In this document: one piece after another, positions 1-31,982 of the stretch
Layout: each line of letters starts with the position of its first letter
Numbering within the stretch: position 1 is the first letter of the stretch
Source of the DNA: Promethearchaeota archaeon Loki_b31
GTDB lineage: Archaea > Asgardarchaeota > Lokiarchaeia > Sigyniarchaeales > SOKP01
Reading direction: 5' to 3'
Length of the DNA: 31,982 bases
Assembly: GCA_005222975.1 (NCBI GenBank)
Contig: NJBI01000039.1
Coordinates: forward strand, 1 to 31,982
Notes under the pieces: model-generated
What the model was told of the DNA's origin: nothing
What the model saw: only the letters and a program-made list of their open reading frames with translations
Databases searched by the model: none
Program-made: the position numbers and the translations under genes

Positions 1-27
1 ATACTTTTTTGAGTCTTTTAAGAAATT

Positions 28-381
28 TTAGTGTGCGTTAATAAAATTTATTAGGATATTTAAATTGCCATTATCAGAGATTAAATTATTATATAGTTTT
101 GCGAAATTATTTAATGCGTTATAAATAGTTAAAAGCAAAACGTCATTATCTTTCATTTCGTTTAAATGCGTCGTAATGCTAACAATATTAAGGCCTAAAT
201 GAATATTTATTTCCTTATCTTCCTTAATCTTAAAATACTCTGTAATTATTTCTCCAATCCTTAAAGCTGCATACCAAGCTAAATTCTCAAAACTTTCATA
301 CAAGATAACGCAGGAAAAACTTTTTCCCCAAGATATACTATTTTCAATGAATTTTATATACTCATTTTCGGATATTGCCAT
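28..381 (-). CDS. hypothetical protein (117 aa)
   Basis: ATG ORF preceded by AGGAGAG (RBS-like), codirectional with 451-1164; no recognisable motif. Confidence 0.65.
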   Translation of the reverse strand: MAISENEYIKFIENSISWGKSFSCVILYESFENLAWYAALRIGEIITEYFKIKEDKEINIHLGLNIVSITTHLNEMKDNDVLLLTIYNALNNFAKLYNNLISDNGNLNILINFINAH

Positions 382-450
382 TTCTCTCCTTTTTCAATTT
401 TTCTAATAACATAAAACTACAATTTTCTATTATTGAATTATCTTTAGGTT

Positions 451-1164
451 TTACCCCAAGACTATACAGCAAGCAGCATCCATTAGTATGGCTATATCAG
501 TCATATATTGAGCAAATTCTTGATCTGTGCAATTTATAATCCAATCAAGGAGTAAATTCTCACATTTAACCTGTAATTCATCCATCATTTCGTTAAATAT
601 CTCTAAATCTACGAAAGACATTCTATTATGCTTAAATTTGATGAAATTGTCCTTAATAATAGGCTCGTCTTGCTGCCAACGTTCTTCGCATATAACTTCA
701 AACTTGTCGTGGTCTACTTTGAACTTGAGAAGACCAGAAACACCTTTTAAGAAATTTAAAAAGAACCCGTCATCATTAGCAGCCCCCTTATTAGATTTGT
801 CACTCTTAGAGTCTGATATATATCTATACATTGACTTTAAAGAATGGTATGGTGTTGCCCAATCCGTAATAAAATGAAAACTCCATCCAAGCCAACGAGA
901 CCAAGAATGATCACCAGAATTATAAGCTTCAGAGGCTTTATTGATATATTGGATCGACAATTCCTTTGCTTTAGCAGTATGGTCAGCAAACCATCCGATT
1001 GAAGTCATTATCGCTTCGAACATCCCTTTACCTAAATCCTCCCTGTTCTTTTCATCTGGTTCTACTGATGAAGATTCGAGTATTTGTAAGTCATTTGAAT
1101 CTATTGCATGAGATCCGTATAATCCTACTAATCGAGCTAAACCTTTATGTGTGATCTCTTTCAA
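451..1164 (-). CDS. Zn-dependent phospholipase C / S1-P1 nuclease-fold protein
   Basis: N-terminal ITH, central LGWSFHFITDWATPYH (LGxxxHxxxDxxxPxH) and HDKFE (HxxxE) match the trinuclear Zn ligand pattern; TTG start. Confidence 0.7.
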   Translation of the reverse strand: MKEITHKGLARLVGLYGSHAIDSNDLQILESSSVEPDEKNREDLGKGMFEAIMTSIGWFADHTAKAKELSIQYINKASEAYNSGDHSWSRWLGWSFHFITDWATPYHSLKSMYRYISDSKSDKSNKGAANDDGFFLNFLKGVSGLLKFKVDHDKFEVICEERWQQDEPIIKDNFIKFKHNRMSFVDLEIFNEMMDELQVKCENLLLDWIINCTDQEFAQYMTDIAILMDAACCIVLG

Positions 1165-1229
1165 TTCTTATCCTTTTCCTCTACTTTATTGAATAATTGT
1201 CCTTCCAGATATTCATTTGAAATGGAATA

Positions 1230-1270
1230 AGTCTATTATATAAAAATAATATTTTTATATAAATAAGACT
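1230..1270. promoter_or_regulatory. inverted repeat containing back-to-back TATA-like boxes in a divergent intergenic region
   Basis: TTATATAAAAATA-A-TATTTTTATATAA (1236-1262, perfect 13-bp arms), flanked by AGTCT/AGACT. Confidence 0.45.
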
Positions 1271-1438
1271 AGTTTAGTTCAATGATTATAAACTGCTAAA
1301 TAGTTCATACCAGTGTGAACTATTAACTTTTTAATTATTAATTACGGTAGTTAATTATGGTATTTTTATCATATACCACCGGTAATATAATAAGCCTATA
1401 AATATAGGATTTTAAATATTTTTAATCTAAGATAGAAC

Positions 1439-2038
1439 ATGGATGTTTTTAAATTAAGAGAATCTTTATTCGAAGATATCGACGAATATCTAAAAATTAG
1501 GGACATATATAAGCTATCACCAACATCAAAAGGAGATTTTTTTGAAGAAATAATGCGGAACTTCTTTCAAAAAGTTTTGCCTTCTGGATATTCTGTTTAT
1601 CATGGAAATATTATAAATGGAACAATTGAAACTGCTGAAATAGATTTAATAGTAGTCGATAACGCATTAAAGGATAACTATTTGAAGTATAGCGTAAATA
1701 ATGTAATTGTTGTTGATAAAAGTTGTGTTAAATTAGTAGCGCAATTAAAAACAAGAATCGATGATATGGAGGCCTTTCAAAGTGTTAAAGAAAATCTGGA
1801 AACTGTAAAAGATATTGATACCTCAATTCCATGTCTATTAATTGCCGCATTTAATACATGTGGGGGAGAAAATATTAAGAAGCAGCAAACATCGAATTTA
1901 CCAGAGAAATCGATTTTTTGTTATAAATCTACAAGAAAAAGGGGTCCTAAGGGAAAGGTGAAAACATACCACAGAGAACGAAATGAAGCTCAAGTTGATT
2001 CGCTAATCGAATTTTTAATTAAGAAATTCTATAAATGA
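1439..2038 (+). CDS. DUF6602-like putative PD-(D/E)XK nuclease
   Basis: KGDFFEEIMRNFFQKVLPSGYSVYHGNII...EIDLIVVD...VAQLKT fits the G-x2-E...LP...G-x-II...D-x-I-V-x-D...(E/Q)xK pattern. Confidence 0.6.
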   Translation: MDVFKLRESLFEDIDEYLKIRDIYKLSPTSKGDFFEEIMRNFFQKVLPSGYSVYHGNIINGTIETAEIDLIVVDNALKDNYLKYSVNNVIVVDKSCVKLVAQLKTRIDDMEAFQSVKENLETVKDIDTSIPCLLIAAFNTCGGENIKKQQTSNLPEKSIFCYKSTRKRGPKGKVKTYHRERNEAQVDSLIEFLIKKFYK

Positions 2039-2789
2039 AATTAATTAAATCCCTATATTTACCATAACTAAATACTCTTAGAATTAATTAATAAGTTGAT
2101 AAACAACTTTTTTTTTTAAAATTTTTCAAACTGTTCGTGATCAGTATTCTAAAAATAATCCGTTCTGTTATTTCCATTGGTAAATCATTTTTATTTCTTC
2201 ATTTTGTATTATTTGATAAAAAACTCATAAAATGATCTAAAGTATAAAAGCATTTAAACAAAAAATGTAGTTCCAGATTGATTTACTGGTAAATTTTGAG
2301 ACTTGTAAAATTAGCAATTACAATACTTCTACTTCCATTTCAAGAGGAGAGATCCTCTTCACAATTTTACGGGGTAATTTTGCATTAATGAAAAGCATTG
2401 CTATTTTTTGCGTTTAGAAGCGTAAACGAAATAAAAATCAAATCTTCTTTGTAATTTGTAATTACCATTTCATGATCAAATTTCGATTGTGTATTTCAGG
2501 ATTGATTTTTGTTGATCAAAAATAGTTTACAGTAGTATTCACTATTCACGGGAAAATCTCATATAAAAACTTTTCGCAAAGTTTATATACTAAATGTTAA
2601 ATGAACTTTTAAAGATATTTATAAAGGCAAAATCGCTTAAAAGAAGAAAACAAGAGTTTATAAATCTGAAATTTTATTTAATTAGACAGAACTTCGAGTT
2701 TAGATTTTTTCTACATATTTAAAAAGGTTATGATAAAAATAATTTTGAAATTAAAGAACTTTATATAATAAAAATGGAATTAGAATAAA

Positions 2790-3974
2790 ATGGTCAGCAT
2801 AAAAGAAGAGATCAAAAAAGATATTATAAGTAGATTTGAACAAGAAATCGAAAAATTTTATCTTGGTGAGCCCCATAAATCTGTCTCACAGATACATCAA
2901 GAGTTTAAGGAGCATTTCAGTGATAAAACAATCCAAAACATTGGTAAAACCTACTTTCCTGAAGATTATAAAATAATGTATAGTAAACCTAAAGTATCAC
3001 AAGAAGTGTATAAGGATATAAAGGTAAGAATTGCTAATGAAATTGAAAGTTTTTATTCAGGCTGTTCAGCAACCCCTCTTGAACATATTTATAAAGAATT
3101 TAAAAGTGTTATAAATTCTGTAGATACAATTTATTACATTGGGAAGAAAGAATTTCCTGATGAATATAATGATATCTGGGCAAGGCTACCTCTTCCAGAT
3201 GAAGTCATGAGAGAAATAATAAATAGTTTAAAAAAAGAGATTTCAAACTATAAGAATGGCATAAAACCGAAATCATTAAGTCGAATTCACAACGATTTTC
3301 AAGAAAGAGTAAAGTCTATTTCTGTTATTGCAAAGATAGCCAAAGAGAAATTTCCAAAATATTATGGTAAAATATGGACTAAAGTCAAGATTACGCCTGA
3401 AATTAAAAATAAAGCAATAAATAGGATAGAAGAAGAAATCGATGTTTATAAAAACAATCGTGAACCTATGTCAATACGAGATATATGGAAAGAGGGCTTT
3501 CAGCTTTATATGTCAGAGGGTCAGCTTGGTGAAATTGGAAGAAATGCCTACCCCGAAGATTATAAACTTATATGGGGTGCTTATAGATTACCTTTCGAGG
3601 TTAAAGAAAAATTGATAGAAACTATTAATAATGAGATTTCTAAATATGATTTAGGAAAGACACCAGATTCCCTACGCGAAATTCAGCGAAAGTTTGATAA
3701 GTGGGTTAAATCAAAAGATCATATAATTTCCATAGCAAAAAATGTGAACCCTGAAAAATATGACGAAATATGGAGCATCCCGCGTATTCCAGAGCATATT
3801 AAAATTCAGGTAACAGAAGTAATAAGAAATGAAATTGATAAATACAATAAGGGAATTAAACCAAGAACCATTAAAGAAATTAGGGAGAATTCTTTTATTC
3901 AATTTATTCATGCAAAAGATACAATTAGTCGTATAGCTAAGGAAGCATTTCCCAAAGAGTACCTGCTTATTTGG
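2790..3974 (+). repeat. six protein-level tandem repeats of 66 aa (198 nt)
   Basis: Conserved Pro at aa 57, 123, 189, 255, 321, 388 and Y/W at aa 64, 130, 196, 262, 328, 395; consensus E-x3-I-x6-EI-x2-Y-x2-G-x2-P-x-S-x3-I...S-x2-TI-x2-I(A/G)K-x2-FP-x2-Y-x2-IW. Confidence 0.9.
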
Positions 3975-4799
3975 AAGAAAAAAATTCCTTATGAGACAAG
4001 GCTTGATATTATTAAAGACATTGAGAATTTTGACGACCCTAATGTTAGAACAATGGGACAAATTGCAAAAAAACATGGAGTGAGTAATGGTACAGTTGGT
4101 CGTATTTCTGTAAACGAGATTGACCATGCATGTACAAATTTTAGCCATGATGATCGTTTTCCTAAAGACCCTTATGCTGATTTAGGGACTGTAGTTCATA
4201 ATATTCTCAAACATTTAATTACAATTCATTTTTGGAGTATGGATTTAAAAATATATTCAGAAATAATTGTAAATTTTAACACTGGTGTTTCAGTTGATAA
4301 TTTTTTCCTTAATGTCAAATCTCATGATTATTTATACAGAGTATTGGAACATAATAGACATTTAGCAAGGGAAATGCGCTTAGATAGCGATAAAATAAGA
4401 AATCTAAATGGTTTTATGTTTGACTATACTAGTGATGTATCAGAAAAAAACATTAAAGCTAAAGCTATGAAATATCAAAAAAAGCATAAATTATTTTTCA
4501 TCGTAGGAACCAGATGGCCAAGGAAATATAAAAAAAGGACTATAGATACAAATTATAAAAATATACGAATTATCAAACATGATCTATTTGCTGAATTAAT
4601 AAGGATACATGGTGATTTATTAAAAACTTTCGAGTATATTATTGAACTGAATTATGTGTTTGATTTAAATGCTTTAAAAGAATTTTTTATAGACATTAAA
4701 AAGGATCTTCTAAATATATTAGGTAGATATTTATTTGTAAATGAGGATCTTAAAAGAGATCTAAAAAAAATAGGTATAGACCATGCAGATTTCTTTTAA
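2790..4799 (+). CDS. tandem 66-aa HTH-like repeat protein with a C-terminal putative PD-(D/E)XK nuclease domain
   Basis: Six repeats, then a classical HTH (MGQIAKKHGVSNGTVGRIS), then GTVVH..SE..VD..FDYT..K..KY. Confidence 0.75.
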   Translation: MVSIKEEIKKDIISRFEQEIEKFYLGEPHKSVSQIHQEFKEHFSDKTIQNIGKTYFPEDYKIMYSKPKVSQEVYKDIKVRIANEIESFYSGCSATPLEHIYKEFKSVINSVDTIYYIGKKEFPDEYNDIWARLPLPDEVMREIINSLKKEISNYKNGIKPKSLSRIHNDFQERVKSISVIAKIAKEKFPKYYGKIWTKVKITPEIKNKAINRIEEEIDVYKNNREPMSIRDIWKEGFQLYMSEGQLGEIGRNAYPEDYKLIWGAYRLPFEVKEKLIETINNEISKYDLGKTPDSLREIQRKFDKWVKSKDHIISIAKNVNPEKYDEIWSIPRIPEHIKIQVTEVIRNEIDKYNKGIKPRTIKEIRENSFIQFIHAKDTISRIAKEAFPKEYLLIWKKKIPYETRLDIIKDIENFDDPNVRTMGQIAKKHGVSNGTVGRISVNEIDHACTNFSHDDRFPKDPYADLGTVVHNILKHLITIHFWSMDLKIYSEIIVNFNTGVSVDNFFLNVKSHDYLYRVLEHNRHLAREMRLDSDKIRNLNGFMFDYTSDVSEKNIKAKAMKYQKKHKLFFIVGTRWPRKYKKRTIDTNYKNIRIIKHDLFAELIRIHGDLLKTFEYIIELNYVFDLNALKEFFIDIKKDLLNILGRYLFVNEDLKRDLKKIGIDHADFF

Positions 4800-4859
4800 T
4801 TCCTAATAATTTGTGATTTTTCATATTAATTTACACTAGTATAAACAAAAAAATGTATA

Positions 4860-5603
4860 TTATGGCATTGAAATTTCGGATTGATCTTCTCCAATAATAA
4901 ACGTATACTCATACAATGTTTCTGTATGAGAATCATCATGTTGAATCGAGACTGTACTTGCTTTCGGACCAAATCGTTTTAATATGGTTATAATTTTTCC
5001 AACCTGTCCGATGTTCTTTCCTGACATGATAATTGCAAGGTGACCTTCCTTAAATTTTAGGTTTTTAATAATCTGTTGATCTGGAATTGTGATTTTCAAG
5101 ACGTCCATACGCCGATACACATCTTCTTTAGGATTCTTTGGATCCTTAATACTGATAAAAATATTCCTCCCATCGTGCAAGTTTAATTGTATGTTTCCCC
5201 CTTTTAAAGTGGTTTTTTGTGTTATCCTGCATAGTTTAAATGTGCTTTCTGCTTCAGGAATTTCGTGTAAAATTAATCCATGATGTGAGTCCGGTAATAC
5301 GCGATAATGTGTGTTCGTTTTTTCTATACTTAGCACATCCATTAAACCTACTGGATATGTTGTATCTTTTACTACTCTTCCATCTACCTTAAAATTACCG
5401 AGTCCTATTAATTTTTTCGCTTCTCTATGGTTATCGACTATCTTCAGAAGATCCCTGACAATATGGAGTAAAGGTAAGCAGAATCTAATTGGATGAGGGC
5501 CAGATGATGGCTTCATAAAGAACTTGCCGTGCTTTCTTTTTATTTGTAGAAATTTAGGCGTGTTGAGTCTTTTTAACGCTCTTGAACCACCATGTCTAGT
5601 CAT
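4860..5603 (-). CDS. rps4e: 30S ribosomal protein S4e
   Basis: LKRLNTP, PSSGPH, LPLLHIVRDLL, VDGRV, YPVGLMDV, QLNLHDGRN. Confidence 0.97.
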   Translation of the reverse strand: MTRHGGSRALKRLNTPKFLQIKRKHGKFFMKPSSGPHPIRFCLPLLHIVRDLLKIVDNHREAKKLIGLGNFKVDGRVVKDTTYPVGLMDVLSIEKTNTHYRVLPDSHHGLILHEIPEAESTFKLCRITQKTTLKGGNIQLNLHDGRNIFISIKDPKNPKEDVYRRMDVLKITIPDQQIIKNLKFKEGHLAIIMSGKNIGQVGKIITILKRFGPKASTVSIQHDDSHTETLYEYTFIIGEDQSEISMP

Positions 5604-6035
5604 CTATTTCTCCCCCTCCTCTTTTTGTTTTTTTGGAGCTCTTAACTCTTCTTCCCTTAATCCAAAAACGTATTTCCTGTCAATCATACTTGCCCGCCAG
5701 GGGTCCATTTTTTTTTCTTTTGCGAATTTTGCTATTACCAAATTCGATATGTGAATAGCTGGATGAAACTGCGTTCCATCTGCTTTATCAAAAGTTGCTT
5801 CCTTAATTTTTGCTCTCTGGTTTTTCGTGATCTCCATAACTTCTCCCTCAAAATTTTTGAATTCACCCTTCACAACTTTAACCCCATCACCAACTCTAAG
5901 GGGAAGTGTTCTAATCCCATACTCATCTCTTAGAAAATCGGCAACTCTTGTTGATAATAGTTTTGATCTTTGATGATTCTTATGAGTAAATAACGCTTTC
6001 CGCTGCTTTTTAGGCTGTTTTGATTTTGCTTTCAT
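5604..6035 (-). CDS. rplX: 50S ribosomal protein L24 (uL24)
   Basis: SKQPKKQRK, YGIRTLPLRVGDGVKVVKG (KOW), IHISNL; operon position. Confidence 0.96.
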   Translation of the reverse strand: MKAKSKQPKKQRKALFTHKNHQRSKLLSTRVADFLRDEYGIRTLPLRVGDGVKVVKGEFKNFEGEVMEITKNQRAKIKEATFDKADGTQFHPAIHISNLVIAKFAKEKKMDPWRASMIDRKYVFGLREEELRAPKKQKEEGEK

Positions 6036-19785: not shown

Positions 19786-20583
19786 TCAAATTTTGTATTC
19801 CTCAATTCCGTTATTCGTAATCATATAACGCGTTTTCCTTTCAGGAAATTGATGAGAATTTATTAAATGTAGATAACCCGTCCCACTTTCTTTACGATTT
19901 AAATATAAAACTTCAGAGAAATAATGATTCAAATATCGCAATCCTACAGGGAGTTCCCTTATAATTGAGTTTTCAATAAAATTTGGAGTAACTTGAGCGG
20001 TTAAAATTGTAATTAAATTATATTTACGAGTAAGATTATTAATTTTTTCCAAAATCTTCAAAAACCTTGTTTTAGCTCGAAAAAATGATACTTCTTTATC
20101 ACTAAGCTCAAATCTATAATAATTATTGATAGTGTCAATGATAAGTATTTTTGCATTATTTTGTTTGATTACATCTTCTATCTCGTTTAATTTTAGTAAA
20201 AAAGCGGGATTACTCATGATTTTGGATACTAAAATATTCTTTAAAATCTTCTCGCTTTCAAGTTCTTGGGTTTTTGCCAATACTTTTATCCTTTCGGGGC
20301 GAAATGTGTTTTCTGTGTCTAAATAGATCAACTTAAAGGATTTATGATATGCTTGAACAGATAACTGATGACATAATTGAGTTTTTCCGGTTTTGTTCGC
20401 CCCAAAAATTATATAGGTTTTGTTTGAATGAAACCCACCACCAATAACATCGTCAATATTTTTTGAACCAGTAGAAATGCTAAATTTTTCTCGTTTAATT
20501 TTTTCGATTTCGCTAATAATCTTTTTTGTACCAATAATCAATGATTTTTTTAAATTTACCGTGCTTGATTTGTTTGATTTCAT
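19786..20583 (-). CDS. RadA/Rad51-family paralogue lacking the N-terminal HhH domain
   Basis: STGSKNIDDVIGGG, Walker A GANKTGKT, YLDTENTFRPERI, Walker B ILIID. Confidence 0.85.
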   Translation of the reverse strand: MKSNKSSTVNLKKSLIIGTKKIISEIEKIKREKFSISTGSKNIDDVIGGGFHSNKTYIIFGANKTGKTQLCHQLSVQAYHKSFKLIYLDTENTFRPERIKVLAKTQELESEKILKNILVSKIMSNPAFLLKLNEIEDVIKQNNAKILIIDTINNYYRFELSDKEVSFFRAKTRFLKILEKINNLTRKYNLITILTAQVTPNFIENSIIRELPVGLRYLNHYFSEVLYLNRKESGTGYLHLINSHQFPERKTRYMITNNGIEEYKI

Positions 20584-20776
20584 CTTATAGCTGATTAAAT
20601 TGTGTAATTACTATTAATTTCATAAATTCAAAAAACTTGGTTCTAATAATTATTAATTATTTTAGCAATAATTAAATCGTAAAATTAATTTTTGATTAAA
20701 CATAAACTATTAAATATATTAACTTTAAGATTTGTTTTTATATAATTTATTATAAAATATTTTAAGTTCTTTTAAA

Positions 20777-21385
20777 ATGGCAAAAAAAAAAGAAGTTTGT
20801 CCCTATTGTGGAAATAGTTTCGCTTACCTTAGTCGTCACAAGTGCAAAGTAAAGGAGAGGATCGAGGGTTCAGAAGAATCCGATAAGTCTGATGTTGAAA
20901 GAAGGTTAGAAAGGATCGAAGAAAGAAAGAAAGAAGGAACGCGCAGTTTAAGAAAAGATGAGAAAATGGTTCTTAGAATTATTAATCAAGAAAGAGATAT
21001 TTTTTTTCATAAGTTATTAGAGCTTACAAACAAAAAGCGAATGGAACTCGATAAAATCTTAGGCACTCTATATTTACAAGATAAAATTGACGTAAATCGC
21101 GAATTATTGGAAGCTTCTTGGGTAAAGCGTATTACTATAATTGAAAAAATTGATGTTAAAGTAAAAGATATTAATGTTAACCAAAATAATAATGATTTTA
21201 TTTTAGATATTTTTTCACATCAACCATGTTTAACTTGTCCCTTTACGGGTAAATGTAATAACACAAATCTCGACCAATTTAATCCATTGCATTGTCCTTG
21301 GTTAACTCAATGGGTTAAAACATCCATAGACGGACAAATCTACAAAGCAAATTTTGAAGAAATACAATCAGAATCGCTAGAATAA
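20777..21385 (+). CDS. TFE-beta / RNA polymerase III C34 (Rpc34)-like protein with an N-terminal Zn finger
   Basis: C-terminal PCLTCPFTGKC...NPLHCPWLTQW matches the C34 FeS motif; central wHTH-like segment; N-terminal CPYC...RHKC. Confidence 0.75.
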   Translation: MAKKKEVCPYCGNSFAYLSRHKCKVKERIEGSEESDKSDVERRLERIEERKKEGTRSLRKDEKMVLRIINQERDIFFHKLLELTNKKRMELDKILGTLYLQDKIDVNRELLEASWVKRITIIEKIDVKVKDINVNQNNNDFILDIFSHQPCLTCPFTGKCNNTNLDQFNPLHCPWLTQWVKTSIDGQIYKANFEEIQSESLE

Positions 21386-30700: not shown

Positions 30701-31588
30701 AAGCGTTCGGAGAGAAAAATATTAGATCAAGCTAAAAGAACCTTGTTTGAGAAAGACTTTGGTCTTTACTCATATTTCCTCGAGGATATTATGAATTTCT
30801 TGAATAATATTAAAACCCTTGATAAAGTAGGTCAACTTTACAAGGGAAAATTAAAAGAAGAACTTTTAAAACATATCAATCCAACCGCTCAAAAAAGAAA
30901 TTACGGCAAAAGAGTAATAAAAGAACTTCGAGACGAACTTTTTGAGCTCCTTGTAAGACACGACTATCTTGTGGAAAGTCATCCTAAACGAGCTAGCGGT
31001 TCTGAATCCATGCGGAGTTCCTTTGCAGTCGGACCACACTATGACGAAGCTTTACAAGACTACTCCGAATCTCAAAGAAACGCGGTAATTTCCTACGAAC
31101 CGATAAATGTAGAATCTGATAACTTCAATAACCTCAATAACTCCGTTAACTCCGATAATTATGAGAGTTCTTCTCAGGTGCGAAAAATCAACGCCAAAAA
31201 CCTAAAAAAAGCTTTTACCGAACATTTCAGCTCAATCTTATACTACGAACATTTTAAGATGTACCAAGCTATTAAAGACGGAAATTTTAAAGAATCGCTT
31301 AAAATCGGCAAAAACTTACTTAAAGAATTCCTTCTCGCCACATACAACTCCTATTATGGCGATAATTGCGCGATTACGGGCGCAGACATCAACAGATTTA
31401 TCGAGTCAATGTTGGAAGTCGAGTCCTTTCCGTTTACAGGAGACGATTTACTACAATTTTTAACCTCTTGTAAAAATATTGAAGTAAACGATTCGGTAAA
31501 AATAGCTGAAACCTGTAAAAATATCTTCCAAATGTATTCTACAATATTTAACGGCTTTAAACAATTCATATATTTGGAGGAGAATTAA
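27713..31588 (+). CDS. large membrane-anchored, degenerate HerA/FtsK/VirB4-superfamily ATPase-like protein
   Basis: Two TM hairpins; VIFDFSGDW, VIIDVS, RRHGFGLIFSANQ; Walker A and B positions degenerate. Confidence 0.7.
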   Translation: MCGMYKNNNASNRARKENNATLDEDSDTRSNLLDIWRVNPAYRDIDLKYSQIRSVSVLVISILIFYFSYLIFRNLYLAIGITVFFIVGFMFEKLLSVYHNVSKAFYEAVQVEPFEDFDICKLVEDPASILIVNKKTATNLITRIFQIEVLPENVNPTLNQFIKALGSAELEYSYQVVQKPMINLTKNEIKGDKNSKLDSYQIVNSSDSFQTSIYFSVFYRINGILGETKKWELMETISMYSNRFKSNFSDNFHHTKITLLSGIKLINAIRILTFNQSVDLPAVKEVNLSKNGYLARFFIKMCFLLIALGYLWFVLDSFKIHPVIVVISETVLIIFCFFVWWRDILYVFTNIYLKRSNQISVLSPFEDVTFYQLKSYKDLLFANIDNKLLTAVKIMNLRMAVQPMLTYPDKFFRALNSHQIPYAYSLYGTPISPHTFTKECLKSLNERSREGLKGIIYEVLDEQTPKVKHPKIEFSNWLQMRSGVWKTILTITAMSYKFISKLDINDFFELGAELSTNATVMKGAFEDNFLKLTLTDLNKHLLFSGFIGISFKNMNFNPAGTRLRYLHFQGKNLLRLAEISGEFKKGITTKIAAEFNTPIHLINHAIIGQTINTEFLEEEKPLGFTFEQFKNLLITNGIAREREFTKMKIAAELIKTQKACVIFDFSGDWSKLIRYFENTMYEDKFLHFKLGTTFNVNLSQSGIEYDNNVEYLSLFYDAFALAYKEQKITIEALKKSIKKEENLDFNPLLLDYRYDKEFKPYIKDNRLLNLLEELTNQTIVFSKEASEFEDNINPIDFVKNDKSVIIDVSILKDLENKVFISFVILSKIIHYINNFPDYTEKMIIIPNVDAFFDANYLDSNYTTANYGKIEKFLEPLRRHGFGLIFSANQIRYLHPNLLNYFQNILSFKATDSRDIAVLKNQMNLQELQGSGYYSSKRNNTYQIDYLKNLRDNEVIVKRADINQPFPGIITYDWFLKSLPLTHDKIIKYMEHQGYNLKRSERKILDQAKRTLFEKDFGLYSYFLEDIMNFLNNIKTLDKVGQLYKGKLKEELLKHINPTAQKRNYGKRVIKELRDELFELLVRHDYLVESHPKRASGSESMRSSFAVGPHYDEALQDYSESQRNAVISYEPINVESDNFNNLNNSVNSDNYESSSQVRKINAKNLKKAFTEHFSSILYYEHFKMYQAIKDGNFKESLKIGKNLLKEFLLATYNSYYGDNCAITGADINRFIESMLEVESFPFTGDDLLQFLTSCKNIEVNDSVKIAETCKNIFQMYSTIFNGFKQFIYLEEN

Positions 31589-31982
31589 ATGAAACCCGAC
31601 TGTTGGCACAGCGTAGTTAAAATTACGCAAGTCCCAGATATGAGCGGAAAAGACGATGGTGAGGTCTCGTGGCTTTGTGACCCTCTCAGCGCGCGTGAGA
31701 ACGAAGGAAATGTAGTGTATTGCACCAAATTTACGCTAGATAAAGAGTCCTTTTCTTGGAAATTTTATCTAAAAGAGGAAACCCGGAAAGAAGCAATTGA
31801 ATCAGGGTTTTGCTTTCTGGATTATCTGCAAGAATTATACCCCGGTTTAGATGGGAAAGTTAAGGTTAAGCCAATTTATTTAGAGCAAATTAGTAACGAC
31901 AGAAAATTTTCTGAATTAGTCTTGCCTGAGCCGCCATATCGCAAAAGAATAGATTTAATTAAAAGAATTATTAATCTTTTTT
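31589..31982 (+). CDS. hypothetical protein, runs off the window end (not in the ORF track)
   Basis: ATG directly after the preceding TAA; open to the end: MKPDCWHSVVKITQVPD...YLQELYPGLDG...IINLF. Confidence 0.75.
   Translation, partial: MKPDCWHSVVKITQVPDMSGKDDGEVSWLCDPLSARENEGNVVYCTKFTLDKESFSWKFYLKEETRKEAIESGFCFLDYLQELYPGLDGKVKVKPIYLEQISNDRKFSELVLPEPPYRKRIDLIKRIINLF

Follow-up and report, generated by a model that had tools for sequence, protein, structure and literature searches.

We analyzed a gene that lies among ribosomal-protein genes in a 31,982-nucleotide (nt) stretch of the Loki_b31 source genome (G000); this whole stretch is referred to as the window. The gene encodes P0001, a putative nuclease with an array of helix-turn-helix (HTH) repeats, and it is probably a free-standing homing gene whose element replaces the end of the gene it invades. 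Below, C-numbers denote contigs and P-numbers denote proteins; G201 is the genome that encodes the orthologue P0008 and contains the compared locus L006. The open reading frame (ORF) at 2790-4799 on the plus strand is uninterrupted, starts with ATG, and gives a product of 669 amino acids (aa). This product consists of six repeats of 66/67 aa, a seventh canonical HTH, and a C-terminal domain of 224 aa (the C-domain). Eight orthologues of 666-669 aa are 71-86% identical to P0001, and the named homologues originate from Promethearchaeota/Lokiarchaeota metagenome-assembled genomes and from the Loki's Castle sediment metagenome. Searches of P0001 against Pfam and NCBIfam returned noise only. The genes around the nuclease gene form an archaeal ribosomal set (S4e, L24, L14, S17, RNase P p29, S3, and L22). 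The features of the locus are, in window coordinates:

2280..2789, plus strand: upstream region of ~510 nt that travels with the nuclease gene (the blastn alignment of the window with L006 begins at 2280).
2790..4799, plus strand: whole gene of the HTH-array nuclease P0001, including the stop codon (ORF of 669 aa; orthologues of 666-669 aa).
2790..3980, plus strand: six tandem extended HTH repeats of 66/67 aa (aa 1-66, 67-132, 133-198, 199-264, 265-331, and 332-397), from self-comparison, repeat alignments, a three-repeat model, and HTH/NUMOD1 matches in relatives.
3981..4124, plus strand: seventh, shorter canonical HTH (aa 398-445), from alignment with P0010 and P0011 and from HTH matches at the equivalent last HTH of P0046 and P0113.
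4125..4796, plus strand: C-terminal 224-aa domain with a PD-(D/E)xK-like fold, a new sequence family (profile search, AlphaFold2, VIA-align).
4197..4472, plus strand: span of the candidate active-site residues H470, E491, D503, D545, T547, K558, and K561 (family-wide conservation, joint loss in a subgroup).
4860..5603, minus strand: healed host gene rps4e, with which this half of the split ribosomal-protein operon ends (Pfam Ribosomal_S4e, RS4NT, and S4).
4863..5114, minus strand: codons 164-247 of rps4e, which form its replacement 3' end (the stub at G000:C59:19020-19271 duplicates them and is less diverged from the relatives).

The nuclease gene is convergent to rps4e, and 63 nt separate its stop codon from the replacement end. 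In G000, the operon halts after rps4e, and rpl5 is located on contig C59, where a 97-aa ORF upstream of it duplicates S4e residues 164-247 with 81% identity. The same split arrangement was found in G201, with rpl5 on another contig behind a copy of S4e 164-247, also at ~80% identity. The site is empty in all five same-genus genomes compared (G113, G065, G083, G141, and G153), where rps4e is followed by an ORF of ~200 aa at the rpl5 position and then by the rest of the operon; in G113 this ORF was confirmed as rpl5. At the nucleotide level, the stubs are 78-84% identical to the rps4e ends of the empty-site genomes, compared with 68-75% for the end of the intact gene, which is the diverged copy. 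In a tree of rps4e ends, the three intact-gene ends stood apart from all others with a support of 100/99, and the stubs grouped with the empty-site genomes. The homology between G000 and G201 covers ~510 nt upstream, the nuclease gene, and rps4e, and the DNA beyond differs. A free-standing homing enzyme had been proposed in the preliminary description of this DNA, and that proposal is supported by the empty sites downstream of rps4e in relatives, by the replaced rps4e end, and by the retained stub.

The alleles also differ at the junction itself. The empty sites and the stub share an AT-rich ...AGAATGGAT...TTAAAAAT... stretch (the first two codons differ), and the healed rps4e carries the GC-richer, recoded CGGCGTATGGACGTCTTGAAAATC. 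As a basis for allele-specific cutting, this difference between empty and healed alleles, read from the nucleotides, is suggestive only.

The flanks of all five G000 paralogues of the nuclease gene were searched for partial duplicates of this kind. The copy on C75 is located directly upstream of a full nitrilase-like gene, and the N-terminal 150 residues of the nitrilase-like protein recur with 60% identity in a truncated ORF at 20382-20867, ~10 kb off and right after a 258-aa ORF. The copy on C41 is located directly upstream of a gene for a 1141-aa membrane protein, residues 47-154 of which recur with 64% identity in a truncated ORF at C19:20569-21060. A healed host gene with its original end retained as a stub was found at three of the five paralogues (rps4e, C75, and C41).

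The repeats of P0001 were delimited by self-comparison of aa 1-440. The BLOSUM sum was 297 at an offset of 66 (91 identities), 180 at 132, and 129 at 198, while all offsets other than multiples of 66 scored below 0. The units begin at aa 1, 67, 133, 199, 265, and 332, and the seventh begins at aa 398. These offsets bear out the earlier description of six repeats of 66/67 aa followed by a seventh, degenerate HTH, and the ten-residue helix strings named there were located at aa 44, 110, 176, 242, 308, 375, and 432. Tandem Repeats Finder detected nothing in the gene DNA, the periodicity being visible at the protein level only. The trace of the repeats in the DNA consists of 38-nt copies that are 68-71% identical and spaced by 198 and 396 nt. 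Because Tandem Repeats Finder returned nothing and only these pieces are left, the repeat appears to be old at the DNA level.

The AlphaFold2 model of repeats 4-6 had a predicted local distance difference test score (pLDDT) of 87 and a predicted template modeling score (pTM) of 0.45. It contained four helices per unit, of ~19, 8, 11, and 8 residues, with helix 2, a short loop, and helix 3 in succession. This combination of scores indicates that the single units are confidently folded, while their mutual placement is not fixed. The relative P0012 (991 aa) carries approximately seven 51-aa repeats ahead of the same C-domain, and many Pfam HTH models match them. P0012 aligns with both the array and the C-domain of P0001 (BLASTP E 1e-31), and this alignment places the ten-residue strings on helix 3. 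The repeat profile was found in 2-7 copies in at least a dozen family members. Pfam HTH models match homologous repeats in P0012, P0046, P0031, P0113, P0024, P0051, and P0154: NUMOD1 matches the repeats of P0051 with 32.9 bits (cutoff 22.8), HTH_6, HTH_11, and Sigma70_r4 matches fall within repeat copies of relatives, and Sigma70_r4, TetR_N, and HTH_3 match the equivalent last HTH of P0046 and P0113. The predicted helix pattern, together with the HTH and NUMOD1 matches to the repeats of relatives, supports the earlier assignment of each P0001 repeat as a probable extended HTH. In a Foldseek search of PDB, the three-repeat model gave no match at E ≤ 0.001, the weak rows being sigma factors, SelB, and Tc3 transposase. 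The best HTH row of the repeat profile against PDB sequences was an RpiR regulator (E 0.18), and the other rows were designed helical proteins and marginal matches.

The preliminary description had also likened the architecture to transcription activator-like effector nucleases (TALENs) and zinc-finger nucleases (ZFNs), and had suggested that the putative recognition helices vary on a conserved scaffold and may follow a recognition code. Between repeats, positions 2, 3, 4, 6, and 7 of helix 3 are nearly never identical (0.01-0.22). Averaged over the repeats, their identity to each other is 0.36 within helix 3 and 0.32 across the rest of the unit, so the repeats are ~32% identical along their whole length, and not in the recognition helix alone. 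We found no support for a code and rejected a TALE-like code, since the divergence is spread over the entire unit and there are no defined code positions. The analogy with TALENs holds for the architecture and fails for coded repeats. Among orthologues, helix 3 of each repeat is kept (mean identity 0.86), and therefore every module is individually constrained, as would be expected if the target is long, asymmetric, and fixed. A search near the gene for arrays that might serve as DNA targets turned up only short repeats that are compatible with chance.

Selection and recombination were assessed in the comparison of G000 with G201. The ratio of nonsynonymous to synonymous substitution rates (dN/dS) was ~0.31 for the nuclease gene overall, 0.32-0.36 for the repeats, 0.23 for the C-domain, which is the most constrained part of P0001, and 0.066 for S4e. 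The nucleotide identity between the two genomes is 93-95% over aa 1-150 and 69-85% over aa 351-669. The comparison of G201 with the P0009 genome showed the reverse pattern (window 2790-4796 vs L006:8001-10007 and L008:1095-3101). The identity along the HTH array conflicts with the species relationships, and this mosaic therefore points to recombination within the array.

The C-domain was examined by profile search and structure prediction. A profile search of 1.84 billion representatives yielded 149 clusters with a C-domain, which is nearly always C-terminal, in proteins of 250-3037 aa. The C-domain gave no match in Pfam, NCBIfam, or PDB sequences, including a profile search of the latter. The AlphaFold2 model, built from a 103-sequence alignment, had a pLDDT of 95.3 and a pTM of 0.90. 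Its elements follow the order helix, two strands, helical insert, strand, helix, two strands, and helical tail, with helices at 16-38 and 107-117 and strands at 44-50, 55-62, 96-102, 122-128, and 147-151 (domain numbering). The model contains the alpha-beta-beta-beta-alpha-beta core with a mixed sheet that defines the PD-(D/E)xK fold. In an exhaustive VIA-align comparison, nearly all of the top 50 rows were PD-(D/E)xK nucleases with Z of 4.3-6.0, including Can1/Can2, McrC, Bax1, PspGI, EcoRII, Cfr10I, NgoMIV, BamHI, BglII, NucC, the R2 endonuclease domain, and NucS. Foldseek against PDB returned nothing at E ≤ 0.001, with MspJI as the best row (E 0.058). An Atlas search added weak rows (Eco47II, YhgA/Rpn-like proteins, and DUF4379+DUF559 proteins). 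An ESM Atlas feature search gave scores of ≤ 0.87, which are a lead only. Because the match list is consistent and the topology fits, the PD-(D/E)xK fold class is credible despite individually weak scores. The C-domain model is thus credibly of PD-(D/E)xK type, in a new sequence family. The variant PD-(D/E)xK C-terminus suggested earlier is supported for the fold and the conserved residues, with modest structural Z.

All residues named earlier as a possible active site (H470, E491, D503, D545-Y-T547, K558, and K561) are present in P0001. They are invariant in the 10-sequence alignment A1, except that K561 is replaced by R in one row, and are the commonest residues at their positions in 72-87 of the 103 family sequences. 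The AlphaFold2 secondary structure assigns them as follows:

H470: first helix.
E491: strand 1.
D503: strand 2.
D545-x-T547: strand 3.
K558 and K561: helix after strand 3.

According to this predicted secondary structure, the conserved polar residues appear to sit where a PD-(D/E)xK site would be. The full H-E-D-(D/E)-(T/S)-K set occurs in ~69 of the 103 members, whereas ~21 replace it jointly (Y/N, N, H/N, I/L, and L/Y). This joint loss argues that the residues act as one site. The degenerate subgroup includes all four checked giants with Laminin_G_3, DUF2341, or Ig-like domains, and the one HTH-bearing giant checked keeps the set.

The C-domain could instead be a catalytically dead PD-(D/E)xK-like scaffold, in a protein that only binds DNA or another protein. 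A threonine stands in place of the motif lysine, inactive PD-(D/E)xK-like domains exist (TIP26 and the N-terminal domain of YqgP are in the match list), and the residues are clearly missing from about a fifth of the family. However, P0001 and all its orthologues keep the polar set that is lost jointly in the degenerate subgroup, and the C-domain is under the strongest constraint in the protein. We give a dead scaffold only slight credence. Replacement or migration of the motif lysine and of acidic residues has been documented in the PD-(D/E)xK superfamily (PMC3424549).

The degenerate members P0059, P0097, P0066, and P0110, from a subgroup in which every candidate catalytic residue is lost, are 1293-3037 aa long and are fused to Laminin_G_3, DUF2341, and Ig-like domains. 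Their sequences suggest that an inactivated C-domain has been reused in giant, possibly surface, proteins.

The distribution of the family is narrow. Among ~200 genomes of the phylum, the C-domain was found in 23 of 40 other genomes of the window's GTDB family and in none of 161 genomes of other families. It was present in 8 of 16 same-genus genomes, and there were 1-10 matches per genome, some with internal stops. No relative was found on viral contigs with a method that reaches close relatives only. P0010 and P0011 share only the last HTH and the C-domain with P0001 (45% identity); their N-termini are unrelated and contain zinc-ribbon-like stretches. From these alignments, the last HTH and the C-domain appear to be the conserved core of the family. 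The arrays that precede the C-domain vary between 2-7 HTH repeats and DUF4379 zinc ribbons, and in bacteria the same architectural slot is occupied by DUF559 nucleases. G000 alone has five C-domain copies with differing N-terminal arrays: P0001, the C75 copy with DUF4379 zinc-ribbon repeats, the C41 and C88 copies with other helical repeats, and a 2001-aa open frame on C66.

This variety raises the tentative possibility of a previously undescribed class of homing elements in Lokiarchaeia, whose nucleases would read long sites through re-assortable HTH (or zinc-ribbon) modules, and which would spread by cutting essential genes and then healing them with recoded ends. By shuffling of its modules, such an enzyme would acquire new housekeeping genes as targets. 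The recombination mosaic in the array and the 2-7 repeats in relatives hint at this shuffling. We regard such a class as possible but doubtful.

A protein with a combined architecture of repeats was also observed. P0175 (718 aa; L005:463-2619, G000:C72) carries a single copy of the 66-aa HTH repeat of P0001, zinc-ribbon-like units with cysteine pairs, and a different C-terminus with the motif FDGFF ... IEYQGSQH. This motif is reminiscent of Vsr/DUF559 nucleases, for which Pfam, PDB, and PADLOC gave no support, and hhalign of the C-domain profile with the P0175 C-terminus detected no relation.

The preliminary description left open a defence enzyme. P0001 would then be a stand-alone defence nuclease comparable to type IIS or type IV restriction enzymes, reading foreign DNA with its HTH array from a variable island that abuts rps4e. 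FokI-type enzymes have a parallel architecture, with a recognition domain attached to a PD-(D/E)xK cleavage domain. The neighbour of the gene in G000 is a NucC-like PD-DExK nuclease, and the neighbours in G201 include SMC_N/AAA_23, AAA, HD, and HNH_5 genes. However, such neighbours lie past window position 2280, where the homology between G000 and G201 ends. There is no adjacent methyltransferase or immunity gene, and PADLOC gave no significant match to P0001 (a single 14.9-bit REase_II row inside the repeats, E 0.0045, was taken as noise). The replaced gene ends at three loci would be left unexplained. Since no methyltransferase or partner gene is present, we do not favour a defence enzyme and consider it very unlikely.

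Related possibilities were rejected on the composition of the locus. No methyltransferase was found near the P0001 gene or at the orthologous and related loci inspected. A restriction-modification system was rejected on this ground, the neighbours being ribosomal-protein genes, the NucC-like nuclease, and ORFs of unknown function. A polymorphic toxin was rejected because the N-terminus is unlike a signal peptide, no immunity gene lies downstream, and the HTH arrays imply an intracellular DNA target. An integrase-borne island is disfavoured, as the available, incomplete flanks contain no integrase. No conserved partner gene was seen at the relatives' loci inspected, where the members stand singly among unrelated housekeeping genes.

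We therefore read P0001 as a free-standing homing-type DNA endonuclease, from a family found here only in Lokiarchaeal (Asgard) genomes, whose element replaces the end of the invaded gene. We estimate the probability of this reading at about two in three. It draws on the arrangement of repeats and domains, the class of the C-domain fold, the set of conserved residues and its joint loss, the sites found empty in relatives, and, at three loci, replaced gene ends accompanied by stubs. From these we infer DNA cleavage, the identity of the target, and copying through repair. In the proposed mechanism, the seven HTH modules would be arranged like beads on a string, each reading a few base pairs, and would jointly recognize a long asymmetric site. 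The PD-(D/E)xK-type C-domain would cut the DNA with metal on D503 and D545, with E491 possibly assisting. The motif lysine would be provided by the following helix, as K558 or K561, because T547 occupies the usual lysine position. The enzyme would cut the unoccupied allele of a housekeeping gene, in this case rps4e near codon 164, where rps4e runs into rpl5. Repair would copy the nuclease gene and a diverged, presumably uncuttable gene end into the break. The host gene would remain whole, and its original end would be displaced as a stub.

Several observations weigh against this reading. The structural matches of the C-domain are weak (Z ≤ 6.0, Foldseek E ≥ 0.058), and Z < 8 can reflect a common arrangement only. 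The canonical (D/E)xK lysine position holds T547. The repeats of P0001 itself fall below every Pfam HTH threshold and, because their structural matches are weak as well, their assignment leans mainly on the clearer relatives. No stub was found at two of the five paralogues within the limits of the search. The tree of rps4e ends is likewise compatible with an in situ duplication and subsequent faster change of the intact-gene copy. No assembled sequence links the nuclease gene to the stub (the contigs end), and what lies between them is not the same in G000 and G201. The split could therefore have arisen by an inversion or translocation with duplication, or by a larger island that entered via another enzyme. 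Moreover, inheritance of the locus is stable across at least three lineages, and the dN/dS of the stub is 0.054 at a synonymous divergence (dS) of 0.74 between two genomes, which corresponds to strong purifying selection, unlike decaying selfish relics. The stub therefore behaves as would be expected of a functional KOW mini-protein that stands alone, rather than of a remnant in decay. Stable inheritance and a conserved stub mean that the gene may be fixed here, and possibly domesticated.

P0001 might instead be a domesticated or ordinary chromosomal DNA-binding protein, whose array binds a conserved site and whose nuclease domain serves the host (in regulation, repair, or site-specific processing) and not its own spread. 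In several lineages, synteny and length of the gene are preserved, its dN/dS of ~0.3 indicates purifying selection, the recognition helix of each repeat is conserved among orthologues, and the rps4e stub is itself conserved. Against domestication, the family is patchy within the genus and variable in copy number, with stops in some copies, three paralogues each adjoin a replaced gene end, five same-genus relatives lack the gene at this site, and no conserved functional partner was seen. We consider a host function of this kind unlikely and retain the homing endonuclease as the preferred reading.

Further observations were made on the stub and its surroundings. The 97-aa ORF of the stub has a start codon of its own and is located at L022:11991-12284 (G000:C59, just upstream of rpl5), and its counterpart in G201 is at L023:1225-1476. 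Upstream of the stub, ~550 AT-rich noncoding bases are 99% identical between the two genomes (L022:11470-12020, G000:C59:18469-19019, vs L023:674-1224), whereas the flanking ribosomal genes are only 75-85% identical; the identity falls stepwise inside the stub. This stretch is single-copy, and 60 other species of the family gave no strong match and two weak partial matches. Possible explanations for it are a recent recombination tract and an unknown element. Rfam searches detected nothing in window 1-6000 or around this ultraconserved stretch on C59.

The gene upstream of the nuclease gene (window 1439-2038, plus strand) encodes a DUF6602 protein that is matched by the PADLOC models PD_DExK (E 6e-13) and NucC (E 2e-7), and the gene belongs to a part of the locus that G201 does not share. 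At the right end of the window, 31091-31981 recurs at G000:C66:3-1859 with 85-94% protein identity (the tail of a 1291-aa ORF and the next ORF). This copy is followed by a multi-copy 225-aa ORF and by the 2001-aa C-domain paralogue, and the recurrence reflects a paralogous block or else a strain variant within the bin. In G201, the S3 gene was predicted as a pair of ORFs (KH_2 with 78 aa and S3_C with 186 aa; L006:12589-13410), while it is single in G000 and in the P0009 genome; a frameshift, an error of assembly, or a genuine split could account for this.

With this analysis, the PD-(D/E)xK superfamily gains a putative nuclease family that was seen in Lokiarchaeal (Asgard) genomes only, carries an unusual variant of the active site, and escapes sequence searches of Pfam, NCBIfam, and PDB. 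The findings suggest that gene-end replacement as a mode of homing extends to archaeal chromosomes and reaches into core genes such as rps4e. Such homing is known from yeast nuclei and fungal mitochondria, and we found no description of it in archaea within the searchable literature. If this reading is correct, elements of this type would account for breaks in the ribosomal-protein operons of Asgard genomes and for orphan gene stubs there, and such breaks and stubs matter for annotation and for synteny-based phylogenomics. Should the modules turn out to act as independent readers, the long regular array of small modules with its separable cleavage domain would be useful to consider in enzyme engineering. 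If a defined short DNA word is read by each module, the protein would represent a natural, partly programmable nuclease scaffold.

In its architecture, P0001 resembles FokI-type IIS enzymes and TALENs or ZFNs, which also join a distinct, modular recognition region to a PD-(D/E)xK cleavage domain. Unlike these, it has no methyltransferase partner, and its repeats differ along their whole length without defined hypervariable code positions. The use of a restriction-endonuclease fold for homing is shared with I-Ssp6803I and the Vsr-like I-Bth0305I family (PMC3424549). Those enzymes, however, read DNA with the catalytic domain or as an oligomer, have no HTH array, and are intron-encoded, and Pfam and PDB profile searches detected no sequence relationship between them and P0001. 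Modular NUMOD1-type HTH units next to a separate catalytic domain are also found in I-TevI, I-HmuI, and the T4 Seg/Mob enzymes (PMC1564403, on GIY-YIG enzymes with NUMOD domains). The likeness extends to long sites, intron-free spread, and co-conversion of flanking sequence. In contrast to P0001, their catalytic domains are GIY-YIG or HNH, they usually have one to a few HTH units instead of seven regular repeats, and they are mostly phage-borne.

Mobile endonuclease ORFs of fungal mitochondria are said to carry a substitute C-terminus for atp6 and other genes, as Paquin et al. reportedly described in 1994. These nuclease ORFs bring a foreign gene end, and the original end persists downstream, as proposed here. 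They are, however, said to be GIY-YIG or LAGLIDADG enzymes, often fused in frame, whereas P0001 is encoded by a separate, convergent gene and has another fold.

A close parallel in the proposed mode of action is provided by the WHO elements of Torulaspora/Lachancea yeasts, which replace the 3' end of FBA1 at each integration (Coughlan et al. 2020, PMC7282813). In both cases, a free-standing endonuclease gene is located beside a housekeeping gene with a diverged replacement end, the old end is left behind, the host gene is intact, and neither an intron nor an intein is involved. The replacement end, the retained stub, and empty sites in relatives were all found here. The systems differ in that the host of P0001 is an archaeon, replacement affects the 5' end and not the 3' end at two of the three loci, the stub is conserved and not decaying, and cleavage is predicted only. 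WHO proteins are intein-like and have a zinc-finger domain, whereas P0001 combines an HTH array with a PD-(D/E)xK-like domain and gave no Pfam match to the intein-like and zinc-finger domains of the WHO/HO family. By analogy, the P0001 element would thus work like a WHO element without being a member of the WHO/HO family.

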